DNA of 64,000 bases from Desulfocurvus sp. (GCA_020692325.1 JAIMKR010000006.1:67933-131932), one strand, 5' to 3'; shown: positions 37,694-50,737, counted from the stretch's first letter. Notes: generated by a model not told the origin, from the sequence alone. Numbers and translations are program-made.

Positions 37694-37732
37694 CGGGCGT
37701 TCCGACGCGACAGCACGCGGAATCCGCCGGGT

Positions 37733-38128
37733 GCGTCATCCCCGGCTCCCGGCGGGGAAACCACCGGCGCATCCGCCGACGATCACGAGGGGAAGGCGGG
37801 CCTCTCCGCCCCATGAGTGGAAATCGCGCCAGAAAGAGGCGGACACTTTTTCCCGTCAGACGATCGCTCTCCGAGTAGGGGCGAAAACCTTCGGATATGG
37901 CCTTCGACTGTTTGATACCCGATCGGCCCAGCGGGGGGGGGGGAACACCGCCCCCAAGAAACGAGCCCGTTCTTCCGCCAAATCATCCGCCCCACGAGTG
38001 GGCCCCACCACCCGGAACCACTGACACGCTTCCGAGGGGCCCATATCCGTCCCACGAATGGGAAAATCGCGTTTCCAATATGGCCTTCGATTGTTTAATA
38101 CACGATCACGCCGCGCGAGTGGGCAAAC
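37733..38128. CRISPR. Heavily degenerate, orphan type I-E-like repeat-spacer array (about 7 repeats)
   Basis: 26-30-nt related units ending GGG(G)AAAC/GAACAC/GCAAAC at a 60-63-nt period, separated by 31-35-nt sequences; one spacer present twice; no cas genes in the window. Confidence 0.4.
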
Positions 38129-38225
38129 CGCCCTTGCCCTCTTCCCCCCCCCTCTGCTATCGTTTCCAGGAAGGCCGGGATCCCCGCGCACCCGCGCGCC
38201 GGGCCCCACGCCGGAGGAGCCGCCC

Positions 38226-38867
38226 ATGTCAACTCCCATGCGGACCCCGATAGGCCCCATCGACATCGAAGCCGAACGCGACCTCGCCTTCATGGCGGCC
38301 GTGGCCGAGCAAAGCGGCCAGGACCTCAAAAGCTGCTATCAATGCGGCAACTGCACCGCCGGCTGCGATTATTCCCACGACTACGACATCCCCGTGCATC
38401 AGGTCATGCGGCTGGTCCAGCTGGGCCGCCGGGACGAGGCGCTTTCCTGCCGGTCCATCTGGCTGTGCGCCACGTGCCAAGCCTGCACCACGCGCTGTCC
38501 CAACAACATCGAGGTGGCGCGCGTCATGGACGTGCTGCGGCACATGGCCCGGGCCGAGGGCCGCACGCCCGAGCGCCTCGTCAAGACCTTCGCCGACGGC
38601 TTCCTCGCCAGCGTGGCGCGCCACGGCCGCGTCTTCGAGGTCGGTCTGGCCATGGCCTTCGCCATTTTGAGCGGCAAGCCCATGCAGGACGCCGGACTGG
38701 GGCCGGCCATGCTCACGCGCGGCAAGCTGGCCATTCTGCCGCACAAGCCCGGCGGCGAGGGCCAACGCGAGGTGGCCGAAATTTTCCGGCGCTTCCGCGA
38801 GGGACCGCGACACGCGCCGGGCGGAACCAAAACCACCGCCGCGCCGGGCGGGGAGGCCGCCAAATGA
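38226..38867 (+). CDS. hdrC: Heterodisulfide reductase subunit C-like
   Basis: CYQCGNCTAGC and WLCATCQACTTRCP. Confidence 0.88.
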   Translation: MSTPMRTPIGPIDIEAERDLAFMAAVAEQSGQDLKSCYQCGNCTAGCDYSHDYDIPVHQVMRLVQLGRRDEALSCRSIWLCATCQACTTRCPNNIEVARVMDVLRHMARAEGRTPERLVKTFADGFLASVARHGRVFEVGLAMAFAILSGKPMQDAGLGPAMLTRGKLAILPHKPGGEGQREVAEIFRRFREGPRHAPGGTKTTAAPGGEAAK

Positions 38868-50167: not shown

Positions 50168-50737
50168 CTACGCCACGCTCACCTCGCCCTGGGCGATCTC
50201 GCGGCGAACGTCCTCGAGGTCGATGACCACGGGGTCGATCATGTTGTGGCCCCCGCGCTCGCCCCAGGAATAGTCATTGGCGAAATGGCCGTCGTAACGC
50301 ACGTCGTCCACGATGTAGAAACCGTTCTGATGCAGCAGGCGGTCCCAACGGTGGACGAAGAAGTCGAACTTCTTCGGGTCGAAGTTCTGCACGTCGATCC
50401 AATGCCAAGTGAGAGAACAGACCTCGTCGTCATACCCCATGAGGGCGAGGAAACGCGCCTTGCTGTCAAGGTACATGCGCCGACGCAGCAGCACGGCGGC
50501 GTCCTTGATGGGCGTGGGATCGAACGGAACCTGCTTGCCGTCCAGGGTCACATCGACAACGGAGTCGTCGCCGAGCTTCATGCCGCAGGTGCAGGTGTTG
50601 CCCTTGCGCCACCACTCCAGGTACTTGGTCTTATAGATCCCCCGCCCTTCCTTGCGGATCTTCTCCGCGGTGGCGGAGGAAACGGGGTGCAGAGCCAGAT
50701 CACAGCAGCGGCCGGTGATGGTGAAGTTGAGATCCAT
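50168..50737 (-). CDS. Hypothetical protein, probably sigma54-controlled
   Basis: GGAGG RBS, strong GC3 bias, CCD and CTC motifs; sigma54 promoter upstream. Confidence 0.75.
   Translation of the reverse strand: MDLNFTITGRCCDLALHPVSSATAEKIRKEGRGIYKTKYLEWWRKGNTCTCGMKLGDDSVVDVTLDGKQVPFDPTPIKDAAVLLRRRMYLDSKARFLALMGYDDEVCSLTWHWIDVQNFDPKKFDFFVHRWDRLLHQNGFYIVDDVRYDGHFANDYSWGERGGHNMIDPVVIDLEDVRREIAQGEVSVA

Follow-up and report, generated by a model that had tools for sequence, protein, structure and literature searches.

A degenerate 61-nt-period repeat region between fumB and hdrC in Desulfocurvus sp. is probably what remains of a small, eroded CRISPR array of type I-E-like form

Type I-E CRISPR systems are common in the Desulfovibrionaceae, with Cse1 encoded in 40/201 genomes and 29/72 genera of the family, which makes donors of I-E arrays or an ancestral system plausible. 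The arrays located downstream of cse1 in ten Desulfovibrionaceae genomes (loci L098–L109) serve as the reference for the present study. Their repeat has the form GTGTTCCCCGCnnnnGCGGGGATGAWCCG and recurs with a period of 61 nt. Arrays that depart from this intact form have also been described. Degraded, cas-less CRISPR loci have been known since Haft et al. 2005 (PMC1282333), and off-target integration that spawns new arrays has been reported for the E. coli I-E system (Nivala et al. 2018, as outlined in bioRxiv 10.1101/148544). In addition, CreA-type mini-arrays, which consist of a degenerate repeat, a pseudo-spacer and a repeat, are described in outline in a recent preprint as guiding Cascade (bioRxiv 10.64898/2026.06.02.729485).

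The region considered here is located in a stretch of 64,000 nt from Desulfocurvus sp. (GCA_020692325.1, JAIMKR010000006.1:67933-131932), hereafter the window, and positions are counted from its first letter. An original prediction placed an eroded repeat-spacer array of type I-E-like form at 37733–38128, and the analysis described below suggests that this region probably represents a small, decayed CRISPR array of the I-E-like type, containing seven repeats and six spacers. Similar to the intact I-E arrays of the family, the region has a period of about 61 nt and units of about 29 nt in which a 5' GT(G/T)TT is followed by a C-rich/G-rich stem and then by a 3' tail, GATGA(T)C(C)G, with all units on one strand and separated by unique spacers of about 32 nt. 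In contrast to those arrays, the repeats share only 57–73% identity with the consensus and 59% with each other, the stem-loop is shortened or broken in most of them, and the seven repeats lie between two syntenic metabolic operons with neither a leader nor I-E cas genes in the genome or the genus. The locus resembles the degraded loci of Haft et al., at least as these are characterized in the relevant part of that paper (PMC1282333), in being an array without cas genes whose degenerate repeats keep the expected spacing. It differs from them in that its decay is much deeper than that of arrays detectable by CRISPR finders, its subtype is found nowhere in the genus, and there are no cas pseudogenes in its vicinity. 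The features of the locus are as follows, with each repeat sequence given as read on the minus strand, followed by its profile score, the genome-wide frequency of that score and its identity to the I-E consensus.

37693: stop codon of the fumarase beta-subunit gene (class I, fumB)
37694–37732: stretch of 39 nt from the fumB stop to U7, with no further repeat and no phased profile match
37733–37761, minus strand: U7, fumB-proximal degenerate repeat, GTTTCCCCGCCGGGAGCCGGGGATGACGC (score 13.8, frequency 6.4e-5, 72%)
37762–37796, minus strand: S6, spacer of 35 nt, without kinship to other spacers
37797–37825, minus strand: U6, degenerate repeat, GATTTCCACTCATGGGGCGGAGAGGCCCG (score 5.9, frequency 8e-3, 63%)
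37826–37859, minus strand: S5, spacer of 34 nt, without kinship to other spacers
37860–37888, minus strand: U5, degenerate repeat, GTTTTCGCCCCTACTCGGAGAGCGATCGT (score 6.9, frequency 4.8e-3, 60%)
37889–37919, minus strand: S4, spacer of 31 nt, duplicate of S1 by local alignment and repeat search
37920–37948, minus strand: U4, degenerate repeat, GTGTTCCCCCCCCCCCGCTGGGCCGATCG (score 18.6, frequency 2e-6, 73%)
37949–37979, minus strand: S3, spacer of 31 nt, without kinship to other spacers or to the hdrC promoter segment
37980–38008, minus strand: U3, degenerate repeat, GTGGGGCCCACTCGTGGGGCGGATGATTT (score 12.6, frequency 1.5e-4, 63%)
38009–38041, minus strand: S2, spacer of 33 nt, without kinship to other spacers
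38042–38070, minus strand: U2, degenerate repeat, GCGATTTTCCCATTCGTGGGACGGATATG (score 4.9, frequency 1.3e-2, 57%)
38071–38099, minus strand: S1, AT-rich spacer of 29 nt, duplicate of S4, with the core ATATGGCCTTCGATTGTTTAAT
38100–38128, minus strand: U1, hdrC-proximal degenerate repeat, GTTTGCCCACTCGCGCGGCGTGATCGTGT (score 15.0, frequency 2.8e-5, 71%)
38134–38163, plus strand: hdrC promoter, outside the array, with a -35 box TTGCCC at 38134–38139 and an extended -10 box TGcTATCGT at 38155–38163
38213–38219: RBS of hdrC, GGAGGAG
38226: ATG start of hdrC

The genome (3.05 Mb in 27 contigs, 65.7% G+C) belongs to the family Desulfovibrionaceae, and the gap between fumB and hdrC measures 532 nt. 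Upstream of the gap are frdA, frdB and fumA, which together with fumB form frdAB-fumAB, and downstream are hdrB and hdrA of hdrCBA. All open reading frames within the gap have a flat GC3 of 0.63–0.67, compared with 0.87–0.94 in the flanking genes, and none has a Pfam match. The gap is therefore considered non-coding, and a coding region or repeat protein at this position was rejected. An independent metagenome contig (L029) from this species also contains the right-hand part of the locus, from 37918 to 38240, with one SNP, which argues that the right-hand half, at least, did not arise through misassembly.

The 61-nt period proposed in the original prediction is significant at 60–61 and 183 nt relative to dinucleotide shuffles. 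Autocorrelation of positions 37694–38226 gives z = 4.1 at lag 183, the strongest peak, 3.9 at lag 60 and 3.3 at lag 244, where the null is a set of 500 dinucleotide shuffles whose per-shuffle maximum has a 99th percentile of 3.9. A repeat search recovers the 18-mer ATCCGCCCCACGAGTGGG at 37804, 37985 and 38045 (83–100% identity, spacing 181 and 60). The same search recovers a 35-mer at 37890–37924 and 38073–38107 with 86% identity at lag 183, which corresponds to the duplicated spacer and repeat start that had been reported previously. The seven related units of about 29 nt were likewise recovered, at profile-scored positions within 1–3 nt of the earlier coordinates. The start-to-start spacings of the units are 64, 63, 60, 60, 62 and 58 nt (range 58–64 nt, mean 61.2), and the stretches that separate them measure 35, 34, 31, 31, 33 and 29 nt, so that the separation of the units holds and the earlier length range of 31–35 nt widens to 29–35 nt. 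Tandem Repeats Finder and Rfam return nothing for the region and a simple k-mer CRISPR scan misses it, in agreement with the earlier statement that it is too degenerate for standard CRISPR finders.

The same periodicity could be read as a non-CRISPR regulatory repeat, in which lineage-specific inverted-repeat boxes and the two AT-rich S1/S4 boxes, all derived from local duplication upstream of the hdrC promoter, would be putative sites for a regulator of hdrCBA-flx. The boxes would have the form CCCAC-GA-GTGGG in an ATC...AAA context, the palindromes CCCACGAGTGGG would be the candidate sites for a regulator controlling hdrC, and both the I-E likeness and the 61-nt period would be coincidental. 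Relative to the conserved hdrC promoter, the boxes span positions from about -43 to about -430, and the cores of U2/U3 (16/18 identical) and S1/S4 (22/24 identical) stand out from divergent surroundings. However, a spacing of 58–64 nt is out of helical phase, and neither the unit motif nor the S1/S4 box occurs elsewhere in the genome at two or fewer mismatches, hence there is no regulon. For the latter reason a dispersed repeat or regulon motif was rejected as well. Considering these points together with those from the profile and the relatives below, a regulatory repeat of this type is rather unlikely.

The resemblance to type I-E repeats was probed with a decay-tolerant gapped profile made from ten I-E repeats, with which every genome position was scored on both strands. 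On the minus strand, each of the seven units forms a local maximum in phase with the others, and four of these maxima have genome-wide frequencies of 2e-6 to 1.5e-4. Matches spaced 61 ± 3 nt were combined by dynamic programming into a chain score for about 10,100 (10,110) blocks of 600 nt, both strands included. The chain at the locus ranks first genome-wide at k = 3, 4, 5 and 7, with a score of 77.6 at k = 7. At this k the next unrelated block, which is a genuine I-C array, reaches 47.2, and the 99.9th percentile lies at 35.8. A period scan of the I-E-like matches has a sharp peak at 59–62 nt, outside of which the chain score is at background.

Because the units are mutual copies and hence not independent, the region was kept fixed and the profile was permuted. 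Column-permuted profiles score 12.5 ± 8.8, and 0/400 reach 77.6. Structure-preserving permutations, which keep stem pairing and composition, score 24.7 ± 12.2 (0/400), and flank-only permutations, in which the 5' and 3' flanks are permuted and the stem-loop is kept, score 32.3 ± 13.4 (1/400). The profile of the genome's own I-C repeat scores 37 on the region. These results indicate that the I-E likeness also covers how the flanks are ordered and oriented, and such flank-specific similarity, which is rare by chance, argues against the coincidence that a regulatory repeat would require.

The units are 57–73% identical to the external I-E consensus (mean 66%), compared with 47 ± 6% for random genomic 29-mers, and carry I-E-like flanks, with GT(G/T)TT at the 5' end and GATGA(T)C(C)G at the 3' end. 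Their mean pairwise identity of 59% is well removed from the near-identical repeats of a maintained, functional array. The units are nearer to the I-E consensus than to each other, a star-like pattern expected of independent decay from an I-E-like ancestor. Together with the top-ranking phased chain and the permuted profiles (0/400, 0/400 and 1/400), these identities support the type I-E reading. The template used in the original prediction has the I-E form, but it is the reverse complement of the canonical repeat, and the canonical orientation is thus the minus strand. The plus-strand orientation was rejected, as the canonical I-E PWM and the two-half PWM are all negative and the chain rank is unremarkable on that strand.

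U7 and U4 retain a stem of the CCCCG...CGGGG type; the other five units (U1, U2, U3, U5 and U6) have a shortened CCCAC-TC-GTGGG together with an extra CG(G) before the GAT. U4 is the best-scoring unit and holds a G11/C11 homopolymer run, and U7 retains a CCCCG...CGGGGATGA core. With a strict I-E covariance model, U4 (10.5 bits, minus strand) and U7 (8.5 bits, minus strand) are the only units that score, and unrelated sites in the window score equally well or better. Single profile matches of 14–17 are also found in 5/19 of the relatives' fumB-hdrC gaps and in an unrelated non-coding leader on contig 3, indicating that single matches are cheap in GC-rich, hairpin-rich DNA. It is the phased set of units that is compelling, not the single matches. 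A second candidate I-E fossil, at about 98.8 kb on contig 3, gives the second-best chain at k = 3–5 and was rejected, as it is a GC-rich non-coding leader with chance hairpins and without 61-nt periodicity.

The spacers provide a separate view of the region. Among the 15 spacer pairs tested, S1/S4 is the only one in which the members are alike (local alignment z = 11.5), and all others are at chance. Plain tandem duplication followed by decay, either of a 61-nt minisatellite or of a 183-nt block copied twice, would produce the period with no link to CRISPR. The alignment of the 183-nt halves (38, compared with -39 ± 10 for shuffles) and the strength of the lag-183 autocorrelation are in line with such an origin. 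In contrast, S2/S5, S3/S6 and S3 versus the promoter segment are at chance, from which it follows that the 183-nt signal consists of the repeats plus one duplicated spacer and is not a block duplication. Adjacent 61-nt units share only the repeat part of about 29 nt, and the negative result from Tandem Repeats Finder also counts against a minisatellite. Duplication of the promoter-upstream region as a 183-nt block was rejected on the same basis: the global alignment is good, but only S1/S4 and the repeats carry it. Plain tandem duplication is already largely refuted by the spacer-pair tests and is highly improbable as the origin of the region. Spacers that are unrelated apart from S1/S4 fit a CRISPR array and do not fit tandem duplication.

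The S1/S4 pair had been singled out previously because the repeats appeared to have diverged more than the duplicated spacer, which raised the possibility that the latter is under selection. This difference is seen in a hand-picked window (35 nt, 86% identity), but over the whole spacers S1 and S4 are 72% identical, compared with 57% for the flanking repeat pairs, and the difference is not significant (Fisher p = 0.19). Based on these sequence comparisons, selection on S1/S4 need not be invoked, and the absence of a significant excess of conservation over the repeats also removes a point on which a regulatory repeat could have relied. A sigma-54 promoter within the S1/S4 box was rejected, as the GG-N10-GC spacing is not present by eye. 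Searches for spacer origins gave matches to phages and plasmids at chance level only (E ≥ 0.01), no match in IMG/VR for the S1/S4 core and no spacer matches elsewhere in the organism's own genome. The protospacers sought after the original prediction were therefore not found, which is weak evidence given that decayed spacers are not expected to match.

The machinery that would be expected to accompany an I-E array is missing. Cse1 (PF09481) is found in 0/22 genus genomes, this genome included. A tblastn search of the genome with the I-E Cas open reading frames of four relatives revealed no remnants of Cse2, Cas7e, Cas5e, Cas6e, Cas1e or Cas2e, its sole yield being a weak Cas1 cross-match beside an I-C array. 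The strict I-E covariance model likewise identified no intact I-E array in the 22 genus genomes, and the three real arrays of this genome are of I-C type with a 32-nt repeat. The term orphan, as used in the original prediction, is thus appropriate with respect to both genome and genus, and the comparison array that was suggested, an I-E array elsewhere in the genome, does not exist in intact form. The lack of an I-E system in the genus is also a point in favor of a regulatory repeat. There is no AT-rich leader with a promoter ahead of U1; instead, 5 nt separate U1 from the -35 box of the hdrC promoter, which is divergent, and a sigma-70/terminator consensus scan of the region on both strands found nothing.

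Comparison with relatives places the region in an otherwise conserved setting. Synteny of fumB and hdrC is observed in 18/19 genus loci, and the hdrC promoter footprint across 19 relatives, CTTGCC(C/T)-N-TGCTAnnnT, is kept here with an 18-nt spacer that contains a C9 run. The gap has no DNA match among 60 relatives, and neither the units nor the S1/S4 box occur in any of the fetched loci from relatives and metagenomes, with the exception of the same-species contig. This absence counts against a regulatory repeat, the motif of which is missing from the hdrC upstream region of every relative. Metagenome and genome scans yielded no relatives closer than 80–82% HdrC identity, again with the exception of the same-species contig.

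In the relatives, the position of the array is occupied by other features. In most of them a GC-rich hairpin abuts the -35 box, and they also carry a conserved, RNA-like element of about 130 nt with the invariant loops GGCGCTACC and CCCGGAT. This element has 25 predicted pairs, 13 of which show compensatory changes, and has no Rfam match. A covariance model finds a single copy, always located just upstream of hdrC, in 18/22 genus genomes; neither this genome nor any of 66 other genera in the family has one by the same model. The array consequently sits where relatives carry the element and the hairpin, and we infer that the array arrived, and the element was lost, after this lineage had separated from that of the nearest sampled species. 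The region itself was rejected as a structured RNA, with an MFE z-score of -1.0, a negative Rfam result and a score of only 8.8 bits with the model of the relatives' element.

Closer examination of the hdrC-proximal end bears on how the array may have reached this site. When U1 is compared with the 50 nt that precede the -35 box in each of 19 relatives, the best p-value is 0.006 (L013) and most comparisons are at chance. As a GC-rich hairpin arm in the same position, this resemblance would suit a regulatory repeat, but it fails correction for 19 comparisons, and homology between U1 and the relatives' hairpin arm was rejected for this reason. The resemblance is also relevant to a neo-CRISPR array formed in place, in which a transient I-E Cas1-Cas2 would have integrated off-target at the native hairpin upstream of the promoter. 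Each integration would duplicate the pseudo-repeat, giving rise to a cas-distant, leaderless array that later decayed. Such an origin would explain an array that abuts native promoter DNA without a leader, the likeness of U1 to the relatives' native hairpin arm, and the non-canonical shortened stem-loop of most units, which is absent from intact arrays of the family; indeed, no intact array with a shortened-stem repeat that could have been a donor was found in 400 family genomes.

The neo-CRISPR arrays of Nivala, Shipman and Church 2018, as sketched in the preprint (bioRxiv 10.1101/148544), share with this locus the I-E geometry, a chromosomal site far from a cas locus and the lack of a canonical leader. 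In contrast to those arrays, no adaptation machinery is present here, as I-E Cas1-Cas2 is now absent from the genome and the genus, and the derivation of the repeat from native sequence is represented by the weak U1 likeness, the only hint for an in-place route. Furthermore, U4 and U7 look canonical and do not look like copies of U1. The present data do not separate formation in place from an imported array, and formation in place as a distinct account of the locus is doubtful.

Taken together, the region is best explained as the eroded remnant of a type I-E-like array that reads from the hdrC side toward fumB, with seven repeats of about 29 nt and six spacers of about 32 nt. The array would have been produced by a type I-E system that has since been lost from the lineage, or imported from one, and drift would then have brought the repeats to about 59% identity to each other and about 66% to the family consensus. 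Arrival is proposed to have occurred in the lineage of this species after its split from the nearest sampled relative, with the array taking the place of the RNA-like element and the GC-rich hairpin between fumB and the promoter, the core of which would have been kept. Possible routes to the site include import by recombination, loss of a larger locus and in-place off-target integration. No relative carries an array at this locus, which is a point against this explanation. The region would no longer give rise to crRNAs, because Cas6e/Cascade is not encoded and most stem-loops are broken or shortened. Judged from gene content and repeat sequence, the array is probably no longer acting in immunity and is almost certainly dead as a defence system, and its present role would be at most that of spacer DNA upstream of the hdrC promoter.

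A variant of this explanation assigns the fossil array a present function, or a local origin. The array could have been co-opted as an upstream control region of hdrCBA-flx, or it could have been written in place by off-target I-E integration at the native hairpin. With co-option, the AT-rich S1/S4 boxes and the U2/U3 palindromes, which are the two best-preserved parts of the array, would be putative protein-binding sites, or the region might act as an antisense or read-through RNA element, and expression of frd-fum and hdr-flx could be coupled or insulated as a result. CreA-type mini-arrays, as presented in the portion of the preprint that describes them (bioRxiv 10.64898/2026.06.02.729485), offer a parallel in that degenerate CRISPR repeats occupy a regulatory position upstream of a gene. 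They differ in that they need a resident Cascade and are located within or beside cas loci; no effector is present in this genome, and there are seven units compared with two. Co-option or writing in place is an unlikely variant. If an I-E origin of the array is correct, less-decayed copies at the locus are expected to converge on GTGTTCCCC...GGGGATGAWCCG.

The remnant array is a CRISPR relic of a known kind, and it is ordinary in kind since the array is almost certainly dead as defence. Its unusual features are the depth of decay, its position as the sole I-E trace in the genus and the displaced RNA-like element beside an operon of energy metabolism. The locus provides a clear example, backed by statistics, of how far CRISPR arrays can erode, to repeats about 60% identical to each other, and yet stay recognisable, and recognition of such a relic needs subtype-specific, phase-aware scoring in place of standard finders. 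It would be the sole trace of type I-E in the genus, none of whose 22 sampled species has such a system, and as such it bears on the persistence of CRISPR debris in compact genomes and on how arrays reach cas-distant sites. Finally, the relic would have displaced a conserved, undescribed RNA-like element upstream of hdrCBA-flx and left the promoter intact, making this Desulfocurvus species a natural 'knock-out' of the element.

Phylogenetic footprinting gives a clear definition of the hdrC promoter, both in the window and at the equivalent position in the fumB-hdrC loci of the genus relatives (L010-L028). The C9 run in the window lies inside the 18-nt spacer that separates the two promoter boxes; one relative (L014) carries a C8 run in this spacer. 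As slippage in the C9 tract would alter the promoter spacing, this tract is a possible phase-variation site. A second homopolymer run is found inside U4, one of the seven degenerate units of the putative decayed type I-E array.

Homopolymer runs and hdrC promoter elements in the window
37933-37943: G11 run inside array unit U4
38134-38163: hdrC promoter boxes from phylogenetic footprinting, -35 TTGCC(C/T) and extended -10 TGcTAnnnT
38144-38152: C9 run between the -35 and -10 boxes

In most relatives, a GC-rich hairpin of 12-14 bp ends exactly at the -35 box of hdrC and may serve as the terminator of the frd-fum operon. The window lacks this hairpin, and its fumB-hdrC gap has no predicted terminator; consequently, read-through from fumB towards hdrC is possible.

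Both copies of the duplicated spacer of the putative array (37897-37920 and 38080-38103) start ATG GCC TTC GAY TGT TTR ATA (MAFDCLI), and two of the three differences between them are synonymous in this frame. The 118-codon ORF is probably non-coding, as it lacks a Shine-Dalgarno sequence and has a GC3 of 0.63.

Genuine CRISPR arrays are present in this genome outside the window. All three contain 32-nt repeats of the I-C type, which occur as two variants (GTCGCCCTCCCCGCGAGGGCGTGGATTGAAAC and GTCGCCCCCCACGCGGGGGCGTGGATTGAAAC), and a Cas1-like match adjoins the array on contig C21.

I-C-type CRISPR arrays of the genome
C15:84-1238: about 18 repeats
C17:207569-209967: about 36 repeats
C21:335993-338741: about 42 repeats

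The top single match in the whole window to the strict I-E repeat model is GUUUCCUCCGCCACCGCGGAGAAGAUCCG at 50655-50683 on the minus strand (18.2 bits, E=0.016). This match stands alone, without periodicity, and is probably a chance palindrome. Outside the window, a GC-rich non-coding leader at C3:98780-98995 (locus L116), preceded by an AT-rich promoter-like stretch, contains two similar segments with hairpins (GCATGACG...CCCCGC...GCGGGG) that give high I-E profile scores. The leader shows no 61-nt periodicity and has no match in Rfam, and it may be an undescribed structured leader.

The relatives' loci L010-L028 share a conserved GC-rich element of ~130 nt, located directly 5' of hdrC and on the hdrC strand.

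Examples of the conserved ~130-nt element (hdrC strand)
L013: ~2260-2390
L010: ~2170-2300

Its invariant loops are GGCGCTACC and CCCGGAT(C/G)(A/G), and compensatory changes are observed in 13 of the 25 predicted pairs. The element was found neither in the window at 37694-38225 nor anywhere in the window's own genome, nor in 66 further genera of this family; Rfam contains no match. It occurs as one copy in each of 18 of the 22 genus genomes, always with hdrC downstream. It is a candidate for a novel RNA linked to hdrCBA-flx, either a cis-regulatory RNA or an sRNA.
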